Below are positions 43,594-51,448 of a DNA stretch of 64,000 nt, piece by piece. How positions within the stretch are numbered: the stretch's first letter is position 1; each line of letters starts with the position of its first letter. Location: contig CAZWXN010000001.1 in NCBI GenBank assembly GCA_964637915.1, forward strand, positions 4,152-68,151, read 5' to 3'. The notes under the pieces are model-generated. The model ran no database searches, had not been told where the DNA came from, and saw only the letters and a program-made list of their open reading frames with translations. This DNA comes from an uncultured Nitrososphaeria archaeon. Its GTDB lineage: Archaea > Thermoproteota > Nitrososphaeria_A > Caldarchaeales > Wolframiiraptoraceae. Position numbers and translations under genes: made by a program.

Positions 43594-43953
43594 TTACTTG
43601 AGTGGGACGTACATGCTTGATCTTGTCGCTCCCACTCCGGCTTTTCCATGCTTTACCTGCTTGCATGTTATCGCGAATTCTCCTAGCCTATGCCCTATCA
43701 TCTCGGGCTTTATCTCAACCGGGACGAATTCCTTCCCGTTGTAAACGTGTATTGTTAGGCCGACCATCTCAGGCAGGATCACCATATCCCTCGCATGCGT
43801 CTTGATGGGCTTCTTCGGCTTCTCACCCCTCTTCAGCATCTCATTCGCCTCTCTCACCTTCTCGAGAAGCCTTAGCTGGACGTGGTTTAGGCCACGCATA
43901 AGGCTCCTCCTCATCCTGCTCGGCAGTAGCTTTATGAACTGATCCATGCTCAT
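43594..43953 (-). CDS. Ribosomal protein uS19 (S19p/S15e)
   Basis: [13 protein letters not shown]...[23 protein letters not shown] signature. Confidence 0.85.
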
Positions 43954-44191: not shown

Positions 44192-45124
44192 CTAACCTGA
44201 AGCTTCTTTCACCCTAGTTCTTCTCGAGATTTGTGGGAGCATTTTCTCAATTGCCTTCACCACCAGCATCGCTAGTATGGTCGAGAAGAGTGTTTGGCCG
44301 AAGATATCCCTTGCATAGGATATTATGGCGACTGGGAGTCCCTTTATAAAGACGTTTACGATGAAGTATGTTGTCGCCATGTAGATGCCGCTCGCGAGGA
44401 GTATCGCCGCTTGCAGGGGCATGCTTCTACCCTTCCCGAGGCCTGCCATCATCCCCTCTCCCCCATGAGCTATTATCGTGATGAACCATCTCGGGTATCC
44501 TATCATCAGGTCCGCTATCAGTGGGCCTATCGCGCCGACGAGGCCTCCAACCCTAGACCCATAAAGGAGAGCTGCCACGAATATTGCTGTATCACCTATG
44601 TTCGTGTATCCGCCTGTGGGCGATGGGAAGAATGATCCGGTGAATGCCGTCAGCACGGCTGCCATCGCGGATAATGATGTCGCGGCCGCGAGCTCAACGC
44701 TGGTAAACCTCAGAATCGGCTCTGCGCGGCCGAACCTTAAGATGATAGCCGCCTCGACTGCCAGCATGATGATCGCCGGGACTAGGAGCACATCGCTGAG
44801 CATGGAGGACGGATAATCGAAGGCGCGCGGGAGGATCAGCAATACGATTGTCGAGACGAGTGCCAGGATGGTGATGTATCCACACCATTTAACACGCCTT
44901 TTGAGGAAGATGATGCCGGAAGGGATCACGGCTAGGATCGAGGTCGCTGAGAAGGCTAGGTAGAGCGGCACCCTGATCCTCTCCACATCAGGCAGGGAGA
45001 TCACGGACAATATGTCGGAGACGCCGAGATGCTTCAGGATTATGGAAAGCTGGATCCCTATGCTCGCCGCGATGAGAGGTGTGGACAAGGCCACTAGGAT
45101 TATTATCGTCCATGAGATCCTCAT
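44192..45124 (-). CDS. Polytopic membrane protein (likely transporter component)
   Basis: About 9 TM helices; the ORF-track start at 45370 overlaps the upstream MFS gene, so the internal Met (MRISWTII) at 45124 is preferred. Confidence 0.45.
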   Translation of the reverse strand: MRISWTIIILVALSTPLIAASIGIQLSIILKHLGVSDILSVISLPDVERIRVPLYLAFSATSILAVIPSGIIFLKRRVKWCGYITILALVSTIVLLILPRAFDYPSSMLSDVLLVPAIIMLAVEAAIILRFGRAEPILRFTSVELAAATSLSAMAAVLTAFTGSFFPSPTGGYTNIGDTAIFVAALLYGSRVGGLVGAIGPLIADLMIGYPRWFITIIAHGGEGMMAGLGKGRSMPLQAAILLASGIYMATTYFIVNVFIKGLPVAIISYARDIFGQTLFSTILAMLVVKAIEKMLPQISRRTRVKEASG

Positions 45125-45222
45125 ACCCTGGTACCTCAAGGATGCTCTGCCGATATTTATCTGAGAAGCATATAAGGCTCGTAGCCAAGAATATTTGAGC
45201 GCGCCTGTGGTGGTATGGGTAT

Positions 45223-46383
45223 TCACGTGCTTAGGATTTTTACAAGCCTGCTTGCAAGAATTACTGCTATGGCCGGGTAAATGCATAAGCTCGCGAATGC
45301 CGTGGAGAGTGGTATCGCGTTGAGTAGCAGGGCTATGATGATGGGGCCGAAGAGGTTTCCAACATCCCACGATGTCAGGTATATCGAGTTACCTAGTATC
45401 CTGAGGTTCGGCCTTACGACATGGGCTGTTATCGCCGCGGTTAATGGAAATGTGAGACCATGCGCCATCGCGACGAGGTAGAGCCCGATTATGAAGAACG
45501 ACGTACTGGGTGCCAGGCCGGCGATCAGCGCACCTATGGCGCAAGAAGCCATAGAAACCTCGAGAAACCTGACAATATTGATCCGGCCCACGTATCTCGA
45601 TAATATTGTCCGGGTTATGTATGTGATTAGGTAGTAGCCGGTGAATATTGCTAGGATGAGGTGATCCGGGATCCCAAGCTCTATGCTTGCCTTCAACGGC
45701 CCATATGCGAAAACCCCTCCAATAGTTATCGAGTAGAGGAGGTATAAGAGTGTTGGAAGGAGGAGCGGCTCCCTGAGAACATCCTTGATCATGGATGAGG
45801 TTATCTTTGAGTAGTATGATTCCTCCCAGAGCGGCGGCCTAGTCTTTGCAAATGCCGCGCCGAGGAGGACTGCGATCAAGCTGATTAACGAGGCGGAGGC
45901 CATAAGCAGCCTCAGGTCCATTAGATAGCTAAGGGCCACGCCGATTGCCGGCCCGGTCCAAAGGCCGAGAGCAACATAGGCCGTGTAATTCGCGACCGAC
46001 TTCCGAGCCTCCTCCGGCGCCATTATCAGGCTTGCGAGCGAGAGAGTTAAGGTGTAGTTCAGGGCGAATGTGACTCCCTGGAGCACTCTGAAGATCCCCA
46101 GCATCCATGGTGTCGTGCTGATCGCGTAGCCGAGCAGGGCCACGGTGTTCAGCGTTATCCCGAGGACGAGTATCCTCAGCGCATTCCTCCTGACCGCGAG
46201 CATCGACGCGGGTATCCTGCTGAGCGCAGAGGCCACCGCCGTCAAGGATACCAGTATTCCCACCTCACTCTCTGACGCCCCCAGAACCGAGTATATGTAG
46301 ACGGGCAAGATCGGGCCGATAATCTCGTATGAGAGGGTAAGTGTGAACGTTGTGTAATTGAGGAGCCTTTGATACCGTCTCAT
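45223..46383 (-). CDS. MFS transporter
   Basis: 12 TM segments, MFS-like loops. Confidence 0.65.
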   Translation of the reverse strand: MRRYQRLLNYTTFTLTLSYEIIGPILPVYIYSVLGASESEVGILVSLTAVASALSRIPASMLAVRRNALRILVLGITLNTVALLGYAISTTPWMLGIFRVLQGVTFALNYTLTLSLASLIMAPEEARKSVANYTAYVALGLWTGPAIGVALSYLMDLRLLMASASLISLIAVLLGAAFAKTRPPLWEESYYSKITSSMIKDVLREPLLLPTLLYLLYSITIGGVFAYGPLKASIELGIPDHLILAIFTGYYLITYITRTILSRYVGRINIVRFLEVSMASCAIGALIAGLAPSTSFFIIGLYLVAMAHGLTFPLTAAITAHVVRPNLRILGNSIYLTSWDVGNLFGPIIIALLLNAIPLSTAFASLCIYPAIAVILASRLVKILST

Positions 46384-46448: not shown

Positions 46449-47174
46449 CTACTTCTTCTTCCTGCCGGTTCTCCTTGCTGCGATGTAGCCAACCTTCCTC
46501 CCAGGCGGCGCATTCCTCGACACAGTCTCTGGCCTTCCAAGCTTCTTCCGAGTCCCACCGAATGGATGGTATGCGGCGGCCATCGCAACACCACGGACCC
46601 TCGGATATGTTGCAACTCTATGTTTCGCCACCATCCAGTGATGCTTCTTACCAGCCTTTAGGAAGGGCTTATCCCGTATCCCCCCGCCCGCGACAACACC
46701 TATCATCGCGAGACATTTAGAGCTTAGCTCTATAACCTTCTTCGACGGCAGCGAGACTATCGTCCTATCACCAAGCTGTGATGTAACGGTCGCGTATGTC
46801 CCGGGCGCTCGGACGAGCTTGCCGCCATCACCCGGCTTATGCTCTATCATCGAGACCTCTGTTCCCTCGGGGATTTTGGCTAGCGGGAGGATGTTGCCCG
46901 GAGCTATCGTCGCCTGTTCGCCCATCTCGATAACCTGGCCCACATACATCCCCTCAACAGCCACGACCGGGAAAGTCTCACCATTCTCCAAGGCGATTAG
47001 GGCTACTGGAGCGCCCCTACCGGGATCATGATCCAGCTCGACCACCCTGCCTAGCAGGAGCCTAGACTGCGAGATTAGCTGAGAGGGGTAGCCGACGGCA
47101 TACTTCCGCCTAAGCGATGCCCTGAAAGTCGGCGAGCCCCTACCCAGCCTCTGAGCCCTAATCCGCTTACCCAT
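46449..47174 (-). CDS. Ribosomal protein uL2
   Basis: MGKRIRAQRLGRG N-terminus, GxxxxHPxGGG-type C-terminus (HPFGGTRKK). Confidence 0.9.
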   Translation of the reverse strand: MGKRIRAQRLGRGSPTFRASLRRKYAVGYPSQLISQSRLLLGRVVELDHDPGRGAPVALIALENGETFPVVAVEGMYVGQVIEMGEQATIAPGNILPLAKIPEGTEVSMIEHKPGDGGKLVRAPGTYATVTSQLGDRTIVSLPSKKVIELSSKCLAMIGVVAGGGIRDKPFLKAGKKHHWMVAKHRVATYPRVRGVAMAAAYHPFGGTRKKLGRPETVSRNAPPGRKVGYIAARRTGRKKK

Positions 47175-47318: not shown

Positions 47319-47894
47319 TCATCTCGAGTATATTCCTGTTAAGGTGGCTTCTGCAAGGATATGGTCTTTCATGAGCTTTAAGAGTTCGTCTTTTGAGGCC
47401 GCTGGACCTAGTTCGAGCATCGTGTCCAGCGCATATATCCTGAAGACGTATCTATGTGGTTTTCCCGGCGGTGGGCATGGGCCTCCATAGCCCGGTCTTC
47501 CGAAATCGTTTAAGCCCTGCACTATTCCTCCGGGAAGCTCTTCAGCAGGCTCCATTCCCTCATCGAGCCGATTCACATCCGCGGGTATATTATAGATTAT
47601 CCAGTGTGTGAATATTCCTCCGGGGGCATCCGGGTCCTCGACTATTATGGCGAGGCTCTTGGTTTCGGGTGGCTGACCTCTCCAGCGAAGGGGTGGAGAG
47701 ATGTCAAGGCCGTCACACGTATATTTTTCCGGAATTATTCCATTATCCTTGAAGGCAGGGCTCTCTAAGATAAAGCCTGTGATCAAAGTGGTGGCGGATC
47801 TCTCCGGGGCACTCGGGTAGATGATATAGGCGGCAATTACTCCGGCTAGCGCGATGATGAGCACGATCATTAACGCTATCCAGCGCCTCGCCAT
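47319..47894 (-). CDS. PEBP family protein (YbhB/YbcL-type), membrane-anchored
   Basis: DPDAPGGIFTHWIIYNIP and GYGGPCPPPGKPHRYVFRIYALD signatures; N-terminal TM helix. Confidence 0.8.
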   Translation of the reverse strand: MARRWIALMIVLIIALAGVIAAYIIYPSAPERSATTLITGFILESPAFKDNGIIPEKYTCDGLDISPPLRWRGQPPETKSLAIIVEDPDAPGGIFTHWIIYNIPADVNRLDEGMEPAEELPGGIVQGLNDFGRPGYGGPCPPPGKPHRYVFRIYALDTMLELGPAASKDELLKLMKDHILAEATLTGIYSR

Positions 47895-47941: not shown

Positions 47942-48202
47942 TTAGAGGATTCCAAGCTCGACTGCGAGGTCCGCTGCCTTGTATTCTGGCTTTAGCTTGA
48001 CGTATGCCTTCTTCTCGCCTCTTGGCGTTATCATCGTATTCACCTTCTCCACCTTCACACCATAGAGCTCCTCAACCGCCCTCTTTACATCGGCCTTGGT
48101 CGCTCTCAAGTCGACTATGAAGGTGAGCTTATTCTCCTTCTCGATTAGCGAGACCGCGTCCTGCGTGATCACAATCCTCTTGATTACTTCGGAGGCCCTC
48201 AT
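47942..48202 (-). CDS. Ribosomal protein uL23
   Basis: 86 aa, [31 protein letters not shown] pattern. Confidence 0.85.
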
Positions 48203-49035
48203 GCTAAACCACCCAGTATCTTTTCATCCAGCTTTTCTAGGGCGGATCTTGTCCAGATCGTAAGCCTGCCTGGCTTGGCGCCGGGCGCGAGGTGGAGGAC
48301 GCTTAGATCCTTCAGCTTCACGACCTTGACACCGGGGATGTTCTCTGCGGCCTCCTCGATCCCGCGATCCTCGAGTATAACTATCAGCGGCCCAACCCTC
48401 CGCTTATATCTCCGGCCCCTCCGCTTGCCCTTGCCAGCCCTAACCTTCTTCTCACTACATCTCTCGAGCTCCTCGCCAAGCCCTATCTTCTCCAAGAATT
48501 CTCGAACCTCCCTAGTCTTGGCGATAGACTGGAGCGCGTCATCAACGACTATTGGGAGTGGAAGGTCTTCCGGGATCCTATGCCCTCTATCCTTAACCGC
48601 CTCCCTATCTGCCGTGAATGCTATCGCCACGGCGAGCGCCGCCCTCTTCTCCTTCTCATTGAGATCCTTGTGGATCTTCTTTTCCGGCACCGGTGGGTGT
48701 CCCGGTCTACCGCCTACGGCCGAGTTAATCATCCCGCCAGCCATCGCCTTGCCAGTGCCATGAGCTCTTATCCGGGATACTCTGGCTACGCCATAGCCCG
48801 CTCCAAGCGACTCAACAGAGTACTTGTGTCCCGAGCCCTTGAACGTGCCCTTAGGCTGTAGGACATGGGTCTGGAGATGTATGAAGGCCCTCCAGACTAG
48901 GTCCTCCCTAAGCGGGGCCAAGAAGGTCTTGGGAAGCGTGATCTCGCCTACCTTGTTACCAGCTAGATCTAGGACGGGCACTCTCCTCTCGCCCGCCCTA
49001 GAAGCATTCATCAGCAGCTCAACCAGTAGGCTCAT
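48199..49035 (-). CDS. Ribosomal protein uL4 (L4/L1e)
   Basis: 278 aa; L4 fold pattern, 4-nt overlap with uL23. Confidence 0.85.
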
Positions 49036-49879
49036 TCTAGGCTTCTAGCTCATAAGAGCCCATATTTAAGGCATGACTCTCACATATCAATATATCATCA
49101 AAAAATCACATGCATTAGAAGCTGTCCAACTCTGGTAAGGGAAATCCTAAATTGGGGACTAGGGAAAAAGGGTCTCACTATCATCCTTTTTCTTTCTTCC
49201 TTCATCTCTTCTCCCATTGGGGGTCTCTGGAATCATATGTCTCCATCTTGCCCTTAGCCATGTATATTCTTCTCCTCTCCTTTAGAGTAGAGTCTATCCC
49301 GCCAGCCTTTCTGAGAGAAATTCTCCTACACGCTTCTATCCTCTCCACCCCCAATACCCTTATCCATACCGTAATTGATCTCGTATCGCTCCTCATCCTA
49401 GCTCATGCCGCCGAAGACCTTATCCTCCTCGATAAACTTCTTCTTGAACCTCTTCCATTAACCTTGATTCTGAATGCTGAAGCTAGCATCCCTATGATGA
49501 ACTAGAAGTCCCTATTTTTGGAATGATCCTCAACGAATGAAGGATGGCCCATGTCGGGGATGTGGTTGTCTGGGGTTCTAGCTAGGTGTCTGTCCTCGAG
49601 AATCTTGACGGGATAGATGATTTCGCCAAGACATTTGGAAGATGTGTTGGGAAATCAGCGATAAGGGCGTTATACAGTGAGCCCAAGGATCTGATGAGGT
49701 GATTGATAAATTCTTCCTGCAACACGTTATCTTGACGCTTGGGTAGAGGCGTGCCCTCCGACTATTATACTAAACTAAGAAGAATGCAAACGCAATGATA
49801 AGCTATGCTCTAGCGATCATTAAGTGGTTTGAAGATTCCTGGAGCTCGCTCCAGGAAGGGAGCAACGTATAGCTAGGGT

Positions 49880-50860
49880 TTAGTCTGGTATCCCCGCATA
49901 TATTAGCTGTGGCGGCTCGATTGGTGGCGGAGGCCTTGCCGGTATCCGGAGGACTATCGGCCTCTTCGGTGTCCCCGGGACAGTTCCTTCGAGAAGTATA
50001 CATGTTGTTCTTATGATTCCAAAGTGCGGGAACCCGCCCTTCGGAGTAAGCTTTGAGCCATCCTCCTCGATCGCGAGTATCCTCTTGTTGTATTCTGTTC
50101 TTCTGTGGTAGCCGAGCTGGCCCGGCCTCGGCACCGTGTATGGGACGTATTCGGGTGTTCTGCCGCCGATTGCTCCGACGACGCGCCTGCCCTTCCTCTT
50201 CTTCCTCGGCAGTATCTTGACGCCCCATCGCTTCACCACGCCCTCAAAGCCCTTGCCCTTCGTCACAGCGATGACGTCGATGAAGCCCCCAGGCTTGAAG
50301 ACCTCGCTTATCCTGATCTCCTGCCCAAGTTTTGAAACAGCATAGTCGATCGCCTTCTCTATGGCCCCGCCGACCTTTATCTCGATTATATCCGGCTTCT
50401 TCTTCGAGAGGCCGGCCTGCTTCGGAAAAGTCATACTAATTATCCTAACCTCTGTAATATCGTCTCGCAGAGCCTCCAGCCTCTTCAAATTCTCCTCATT
50501 CGGCCTCCAGTTCGGGATCTTCCTCCTAATCAGGTCCATGGGAACCTTGCTGCTCCAGACCTTCAAGAGCTCTTTGAGAGATTTGTTCTCCTCGGTGTAT
50601 GCAACTATGCCGGCCGCGAGCATCGGCGGAGTGACTATCACAGTGGCGACCTCCGCGACCTCCTGGCCTTGGGTCGGGGAGTTCGGCGTAGTATCTATGT
50701 AGTATGCTGTGAGGTGACCCGCCTTATAGCCCAAGAAGCCCAAGGGCTTCGGCTCGCCCTCATATGGAGGCCAATACCTTACCCTAGGGACGAGGCGACT
50801 GGCCCTGCCTCTAGGCAGGAATGCGAGCGAGCCTGATCTCGGCTTCGAGTCCTTGACCAT
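49880..50860 (-). CDS. Ribosomal protein uL3
   Basis: 326 aa; N-terminal KPRSGSLAFLPR and internal L3 motifs. Confidence 0.85.
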   Translation of the reverse strand: MVKDSKPRSGSLAFLPRGRASRLVPRVRYWPPYEGEPKPLGFLGYKAGHLTAYYIDTTPNSPTQGQEVAEVATVIVTPPMLAAGIVAYTEENKSLKELLKVWSSKVPMDLIRRKIPNWRPNEENLKRLEALRDDITEVRIISMTFPKQAGLSKKKPDIIEIKVGGAIEKAIDYAVSKLGQEIRISEVFKPGGFIDVIAVTKGKGFEGVVKRWGVKILPRKKRKGRRVVGAIGGRTPEYVPYTVPRPGQLGYHRRTEYNKRILAIEEDGSKLTPKGGFPHFGIIRTTCILLEGTVPGTPKRPIVLRIPARPPPPIEPPQLIYAGIPD

Positions 50861-50962: not shown

Positions 50963-51448
50963 ATGGCTGCTCGGGAGCTTCCCGTGACCCGTGAGATAAT
51001 TGAGCTCATTAGGAGGCCGAGTGTGGTTGGCCTGGCAACTCACCGGCATCTGCCGCATGAGAGGGCGATATACCTGAGGCATGGTAGATGTGGCTTCGCG
51101 ATCGATGTGCTGGTGGAGGAGAATGGTGTTAGGAAGCTCTACTCCGTCCTCGTGGAGGCGGAGGCGAACATCGGCGATAGGAAGGAGTTTAAGTCATTCA
51201 TGGAGCTCGGCGGCATAATCCGCTACCAGCTCTCCGAGAGGATCGGCGACAGGTTCAAGATAACAAGGAAGGAGCTCAGCTACAGGGATGGAGAGGAGCT
51301 CTTCCACCAAGTCGATCTCGTTAGAGCCGTATTCTATGAGAAGTATCGGGAGCTTAAGGCCAAGGCCGGGGTTGGGCCGGCAAAGATAGAGGAGGAGATC
51401 TTCCACCAGGTTGGAATCAAGCCCGAGGAAATGCTTCTGGGAGTATAG
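50963..51448 (+). CDS. Hypothetical protein (161 aa), translationally coupled to the AsnB-like gene
   Basis: No recognised domain; stop 4 nt before the next start. Confidence 0.4.
   Translation: MAARELPVTREIIELIRRPSVVGLATHRHLPHERAIYLRHGRCGFAIDVLVEENGVRKLYSVLVEAEANIGDRKEFKSFMELGGIIRYQLSERIGDRFKITRKELSYRDGEELFHQVDLVRAVFYEKYRELKAKAGVGPAKIEEEIFHQVGIKPEEMLLGV

Follow-up and report, generated by a model that had tools for sequence, protein, structure and literature searches.

The genes for ribosomal proteins uL3 and uL4 are normally adjacent, and a preliminary description of this locus pointed to a gap of about 844 bp between them. This raises the question of what such a segment represents inside a highly conserved ribosomal-protein cluster; a degraded gene, a structured RNA and a long leader of the uL4-uL23-uL2 genes had all been proposed. 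In the window, by which we mean the entire 64,000-nucleotide stretch of DNA analyzed here, the gap is exactly 844 bp long, and the ribosomal-protein genes are all located on the minus strand. The gap is also AT-richer than its surroundings, as had been described, with a GC content of 0.40-0.475 compared to 0.55-0.60 in the genes on either side. Neighboring ORFs of the window are a median of about 48 bp apart. Both ORFs reported earlier for the gap, here called ORF64 and ORF117, were recovered and are the only ones of at least 60 aa; smaller ORFs of 38-47 aa are also present. The flanking uL3 shares 96% identity with uL3 of Candidatus Wolframiiraptor gerlachensis, and the N-terminus of uL4 is conserved from residue 1 in all relatives.

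The same 843-844-bp spacer was found with 0-4 differences in four independent assemblies (JGI 3300022546, JGI 3300025068, ENA ERZ27245638 and Logan SRR5468562), in which the surrounding 7-11 kb are 99.8-99.9% identical to the window. The window evidently comes from a metagenome-derived genome, and a chimeric join made during assembly or binning would be one conceivable origin of such a gap. Recurrence of the spacer in different samples and pipelines makes this explanation extremely improbable, and since four independent assemblies share it we regard the gap as genuine. In our view the gap quite likely represents an intergenic region of composite make-up, mostly without function, which arose by stepwise decay of a ribosomal-protein operon in the Wolframiiraptor lineage. 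Positions of its parts are listed in Table 1.

Table 1. Features of the uL3-uL4 gap and of the genes around it, in window coordinates
Feature	Position	Strand	Description
uL3	49880-50860	-	326 aa; upstream neighbor of the gap; an identical protein in L030 has PF00297
uL3-uL4 gap	49036-49879		844 bp
HEPN pseudogene remnant	49705-49879	+	last ~55 codons in three frames, with an in-frame stop; convergent with uL3
Palindrome	49836-49857		perfect, arms of 10 bp, loop of 2 nt; within the HEPN remnant, 22 nt past the uL3 stop
Remnant piece 3	49768-49857		Y*TKKNANAMISYALAIIKWFEDSWSSLQE
Remnant piece 2	49748-49774		GVPSDYYTK
Remnant piece 1	49722-49757		TRYLDAWVEACP
Orphan segment	49073-49704		632 bp; stands where the closest relatives have 338-339 bp
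Upstream continuation of the ORF64 frame	49397-49630	-	gene-like codon usage; TGA at 49403-49405, TAG at 49502-49504
ORF117	49152-49505	+	117 aa, pyrimidine-rich; apparent antisense shadow of the minus-strand coding-like frame
ORF64	49202-49396	-	orphan, 64 aa; same direction as the ribosomal genes; relic or lineage-specific small gene
Oligo-T runs	49100-49169 (T5 49165-49169, T6 49100-49105)	-	putative terminator zone for uL3 read-through
uL4 promoter, predicted	49058-49071	-	CCTTAAATATGGGC; invariant block of the spacer alignment
TATA box	49062-49069	-	TTAAATAT; -34 to -27 from the uL4 ATG
uL4	48199-49035	-	278 aa; PF00573 in an identical protein; heads the uL4-uL23-PEBP-uL2 unit
uL23	47942-48202	-	
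uL2	46449-47174	-	
uS19	43594-43953		

In the genome collection the uL4 protein matched W. gerlachensis (96%), W. sinensis (92%) and other Wolframiiraptoraceae, and it also matched 16 metagenome contigs, the top one of which (L014) is 98% identical. The taxonomy of the family (Wolframiiraptor, Terraquivivens, Geocrenenecus, Benthortus) is as in PMC9246946. We located uL3, uL4, uL23, PEBP and uL2 in all related loci (denoted by L numbers) for a comparison of the spacers, which had been suggested as a check, and this comparison revealed a graded series. The two genes are indeed adjacent in the outgroups: Geocrenenecus, Benthortus and genomes like them (L007-L010, L023-L025) have spacers of -4 to +5 bp. 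Spacers of 81-169 bp are found in intermediate relatives (L004, L006, L011, L012, L018, L021, L026, L028) and spacers of 547-621 bp in other Wolframiiraptor (L001-L003, L005, L014-L017, L019), followed by 844 bp at the window locus. L020, an intermediate relative and more distant family member, has a spacer of 1017 bp. This spacer contains a different antisense gene (L020:304-1068, minus strand), which encodes 254 aa with a hydrophobic N-terminus and has no Pfam match, indicating that the uL3-uL4 junction takes insertions repeatedly.

Apart from the 3' part of an inserted gene described below, the spacer alignment contains a single invariant block, CCTTAAATATGGGC, which we predict to be the uL4 promoter. 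All loci whose spacer measures 81 bp or more have an element TTAAATA(T/A) about 34 to 27 nt before the uL4 ATG, and this element is absent where uL3 and uL4 abut. Archaeal promoters have their TATA box centered about 26 nt upstream of the transcription start. As an A/T-rich octamer kept among relatives at a fixed distance upstream of a gene, TTAAATAT has the properties of a TATA box, and its position resembles that of archaeal promoters which give rise to leaderless or short-leader mRNAs. TATA-like boxes are likewise seen at -28 to -44 of other first genes in the window, for example CCTTAAATAC at -34 of the plus-strand ORF starting at 50963. Unlike in typical archaeal TATA promoters, no clear purine-rich BRE was recognized upstream of TTAAATAT; the likeness to them is one of sequence, position and conservation. 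With the TATA box 27-34 nt upstream of the ATG, the uL4 leader could be at most a few nucleotides long. We infer that uL4 has its own promoter and a nearly leaderless mRNA starting at the ATG or a few nucleotides before it. Since the TATA box is present in all split loci, the operon would already have been split before any large insertion.

One antisense ORF of about 135-185 aa occupies the spacer in L002, L003, L005, L015, L016, L017 and L019. These ORFs match the HEPN family PF05168 with 100-111 bits (cut-off 22) and E values of 1e-28 to 3e-32, and the match spans the whole domain including the RYP motif region. Pairwise dN/dS values of 0.07-0.29 among the HEPN genes of the relatives point to purifying selection on an intact, functional gene. 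The gene is oriented convergently to uL3, their stop regions overlapping, and divergently from uL4, and the spacer alignment shows its own conserved TATA box (GGATATAA as read on the uL4 strand). The gene is frameshifted in W. gerlachensis (L001) and in the independently assembled contig L014. The nominally intact copy L015:1762-2232 (-) reads WIGLLAKPLSRRRLISRGDYNW where other species read WIRAACQALESAKADLSRGDYNW; this looks like a compensating pair of frameshifts, i.e. early decay in the gerlachensis-type lineage too.

HEPN proteins of PF05168 usually partner minimal nucleotidyltransferases (MNT) in toxin-antitoxin-like pairs of thermophiles. The HEPN gene described here differs from such pairs in that it is the sole gene between uL3 and uL4 in every Wolframiiraptor locus, with these two genes as its neighbors and no MNT adjacent; no nucleotidyltransferase match was found in the window gap. 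The aligned motif region reads TRYPDAW, and no R-x4-6-H ribonuclease motif is seen in it. Further HEPN-domain genes were observed just downstream of uL23 or nearby in L020:2743-3069 (-), L024:5496-5819 (+), L025:3125-3487 (+) and L005 near 9070 (+), the L020 copy matching PF05168 with an E value of 1e-32. An association of HEPN genes with the ribosomal-protein cluster seems to recur in Wolframiiraptoraceae.

While the spacer gene of the relatives matches the whole HEPN domain, the window keeps its last third in a truncated and frameshifted form. A tblastn comparison with the intact HEPN protein of L002 detected 63% identity over 30 aa together with a pair of short pieces in other reading frames (joint E value 4e-9), so that the three pieces are located in three different reading frames. 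A profile built from the HEPN proteins of the relatives matched the window at positions 94-140 of 146 only, again with an E value of 4e-9. The window copy has no intact frame: the first 93 profile positions are absent, and the breakpoint is at 49704/49705. DNA of the remnant is 80% identical to L001, L014 and L015, compared to 94.5-95.8% for the uL4 block, and it carries a 5-bp insertion and several 1-bp deletions. A PKDL match farther upstream, obtained when the HEPN profile was compared with reading-frame fragments, was rejected as a chance match, the same bases being those of a contiguous ELDKLF-like match. Judging from these alignments, the 175 bp beside uL3 are a HEPN pseudogene relic of a gene which sister species keep intact at exactly the same place. 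The proposal of a degraded gene can thus be accepted for this part, the frameshifted 3' third of HEPN; for the other 632 bp it is plausible but unproven, given gene-like codon statistics and no homologue.

These 632 bp, termed the orphan segment, are delimited by sharp homology breakpoints at 49072/49073 and 49704/49705 against L015, L001, L014 and L017. They take the place of the HEPN promoter and the 5' two-thirds of the HEPN gene, and their GC content is 44.6% compared to 56-57% for uL3 and uL4. A tblastx search for a decayed ORF, another check suggested earlier, and blastn yielded no match of the orphan segment to the 29 related loci or to the rest of the window. A lone tblastx match in L006 (E=0.001) was rejected since it is antisense to a real ORF there. 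Eight reading-frame fragments of the segment had no match in Pfam, PHROGs or PADLOC, and a protein search with concatenated six-frame fragments of at least 18 aa, from which ORF117 and ORF64 were excluded, also gave none. No match was obtained by blastn against phages and plasmids or in viral contigs with two exact 20-23-mers of the segment. A repeat search detected only short, chance-level repeats, among them a 15-nt direct repeat at 49036 and 49569, off the breakpoints.

The orphan segment nevertheless has coding-like statistics to set beside this lack of homologues. Purines make up 68% of the minus strand in its core (49180-49500), which has a period-3 signal of z=4.9, equalled by 2 of 1000 shuffles and comparable to that of a 320-bp piece of uL4. 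For codons in the ORF64 frame, the in-frame sense model beats the five other frames by at least 0.26 nats/codon, compared to 0.215±0.09 for real genes, and the best-ORF statistic of ORF64 was equalled by 13 of 1500 dinucleotide shuffles (0.9%). ORF64 combines an open frame with the codon usage of the genome, as expected for a protein-coding gene. In the frame plot the same minus-strand frame is best from about 49630 down to 49200, across both in-frame stops.

The codon composition of ORF117 fits best to a model for the antisense of a gene, its length was equalled by 2.9% of composition-matched shuffles, and it has no homologue in the protein search and no Pfam match. Pyrimidine richness noted earlier for this ORF is real, but the operon is on the minus strand and the ORF is thus antisense to the ribosomal genes, which corrects the preliminary description in this respect. 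We read the minus-strand frame as the eroded remains of a gene of an unknown family, with ORF64 as its open tail. The 632 bp are probably a decayed foreign gene, as suggested by composition and by codon statistics with p values of about 0.01-0.002 from tests that are not independent.

Another possibility is that ORF64 is a live, lineage-specific gene for a small basic protein, which the spacer acquired or gave rise to and which is expressed together with uL3 or right after it. Gene finders called ORF64 in all four assemblies, its codon usage is as frame-specific as that of real genes and exceeds 99.1% of composition-matched shuffles, and the period-3 signal of the core points the same way. It has the orientation of the operon, the T5 and T6 runs come after it, and a weak TTTATC element is located about 40 nt upstream. 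All available copies of ORF64 are identical. However, a search of 5.8 billion proteins and a full HMMER search of 1.84 billion representatives returned only ORF64 itself, the ORF is absent from genomes with 96-98% identical uL4, and Pfam, PHROG and PADLOC gave no match. The gene-like frame moreover runs upstream through two in-frame stops, like a truncated relic, and AlphaFold predicted a single helix of low confidence (pLDDT 64, pTM 0.24). A live gene is rather unlikely on balance. It is doubtful that the 632 bp carry ORF64 as a small basic protein, newly acquired or arisen de novo, which would be made from the 3' portion of the uL3 transcript within the ribosomal-protein cluster of a single Wolframiiraptor population; if this were true, the ribosome or RNA might be its target. 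Transposition of a non-autonomous mobile element (a MITE or an IS fragment) into the HEPN gene would also be consistent with sharp boundaries, replaced resident sequence, a GC content below that of the genome and the other insertions taken by the same junction in relatives. Such an origin is improbable given that the terminal inverted repeats of the segment are not significant (the best alignment was equalled by 8% of shuffles, p=0.08), that no direct repeat flanks its ends, and that its fragments gave no transposase or integrase signal. No second copy was found within the 64-kb window or the 29 loci either, and the removal of 338 bp is unlike simple transposition.

A large, AT-richer gap without long conserved ORFs directly upstream of uL4 could be expected to encode a structured non-coding RNA or to act as a long cis-regulatory leader, by which uL4 or a different protein would control uL4-uL23-uL2 as in an S10 leader, all the more so as the gap contains a perfect palindrome. 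The S10 leader of E. coli is bound by L4, and Rfam holds leader families of ribosomal proteins, including an archaeal L4 leader candidate. A covariance-model scan, which had been recommended for the gap, yielded only tRNA-Ala at 34662 in the whole window at the gathering threshold, and the same tRNA alone was detected by a tRNA/tmRNA scan of the window. Even at E<=10 the best matches in the gap were noise, with 14-21 bits against thresholds of 43-67 and E values of 1.8-8.6. A snoR21 candidate at 49487-49562 has a C box without a D box and scores far below the Rfam threshold, and was rejected. A regex scan found no C/D-box arrangement (RUGAUGA and CUGA 35-80 nt apart) on either strand of the gap, and sliding folding z-scores on both strands ranged from -2.8 to +1, none below -3, as in flanking coding DNA.

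Conservation argues in the same direction, since the segment 49073-49704 is absent from all 29 related loci, including those where uL4 is 96-98% identical, whereas the TATA box at -34 to -27 is common to the closest relatives. At 800 nt from uL4, the palindrome is part of the HEPN relic; relatives have it only in part, their corresponding bases coding for the HEPN motif WSSL, and we attribute no function to it. A scan for bacterial-type promoters and terminators was uninformative, the host being archaeal. The likeness to autoregulatory leaders of ribosomal proteins is one of position, as non-coding DNA directly upstream of uL4; the gap differs from them in that it matches no covariance model, shows no conserved structure, is not shared by close relatives and has a promoter too near the ATG. 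This last point, together with the divergence of the farther upstream sequence between close relatives, speaks against the long leader proposed earlier, and we regard a structured RNA or a leader as very improbable.

Stepwise operon decay, the reading we prefer, probably proceeded as follows. Comparison of the loci shows that uL3 and uL4 were split into separate transcription units in the ancestor of Wolframiiraptor and its nearest relatives, leaving a short spacer with a dedicated TATA box 27-34 nt from the ATG, from which an mRNA of uL4-uL23-PEBP-uL2 would start at or near the start codon. A solo HEPN gene (PF05168) with its own TATA box was then inserted antisense into this spacer in the genus Wolframiiraptor, and purifying selection maintains it in several species. 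The HEPN gene is dying in the W. gerlachensis group, as indicated by the frameshifts in two gerlachensis-type contigs. In the window population, 632 bp of unrelated DNA have replaced 338 bp with the HEPN promoter and the 5' two-thirds of the gene, and the residual 3' third has accumulated frameshifts and a stop. The 632 bp are probably foreign or otherwise unsampled DNA which was once protein-coding on the minus strand and is now decaying, ORF64 representing its still-open tail.

The final step of this account would be termination of uL3 transcripts at T5 and T6, just upstream of the uL4 TATA box. In a pattern scan these were the first minus-strand runs of at least four T downstream of uL3, and T5 runs occur at the same position in L001, L014, L015, L017, L006, L020 and L029. 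Transcription from uL3 probably continues across relic and orphan segment as far as the T runs, where it would stop and then begin anew at uL4. The insert may have been tolerated because it leaves both uL3 and the promoter of uL4 undisturbed.

Operon death by insertion has been described for E. coli and its relatives (Price, Arkin & Alm 2006, 'The Life-Cycle of Operons', PMC1480536). As in that process, uL3 and uL4 are still neighbors but are split by unrelated, partly orphan DNA, and the downstream gene has its own promoter. The present case differs in that it concerns an archaeal ribosomal-protein cluster, that a series of 0, ~100, ~560 and 844 bp is found within one family, and that the inserted HEPN gene has since died. 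The gap is thus a new instance of a known genome-decay process, ordinary operon decay and not a hidden RNA. An odd hole in a highly conserved cluster turns out to consist of a promoter, a dead accessory gene and orphan filler, as ordinary genome turnover would leave behind, which cautions against taking such gaps for hidden RNAs. The locus offers a natural example of archaeal operon dismantling, from fused genes to a short spacer with a promoter, then an antisense HEPN gene, and then frameshift, truncation and replacement. The uL3-uL4 junction also represents a recurrent landing site for accessory genes in Wolframiiraptoraceae, and the orphan segment with its gene-like statistics may be a small candidate for orphan-gene studies.

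Other junctions of the cluster hold additional genes. A PEBP-family gene (47319-47894, minus strand, PF01161, E 3e-43) is located between uL23 and uL2. Among the relatives, it is absent from L001 (W. gerlachensis), in pieces in L002 and L014, and intact in L003, L005, L016 and L017; in L006, L008, L011 and L012 its place is taken by 1-2.8 kb of other DNA. Between uL2 and uS19, the region 44192-46383 (minus strand) encodes an MFS transporter (386 aa) and an ECF-riboflavin-type S component (310 aa). With these inserted genes, three junctions of the classical uL3-uL4-uL23-uL2-uS19 cluster are broken up in the window genome. On the other side of the gap, an ORF of 161 aa (50963-51448, plus strand) is divergent from uL3; it is the ORF with the CCTTAAATAC box mentioned above, has no Pfam match, is conserved in the four assemblies and is followed by a gene of the asparagine-synthase family.

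Minor sequence variation was observed near the uL4 promoter. One assembly has T5 instead of T6 at 49100-49105. In the region 49055-49058, the three bases at -22 to -20 from the uL4 ATG were seen as three alleles (CTCTTAT, CACATAT and CTCCTAT) among five sequences which are otherwise 99.8-99.9% identical, making the stretch between the TATA box and the start a small polymorphism hot spot.
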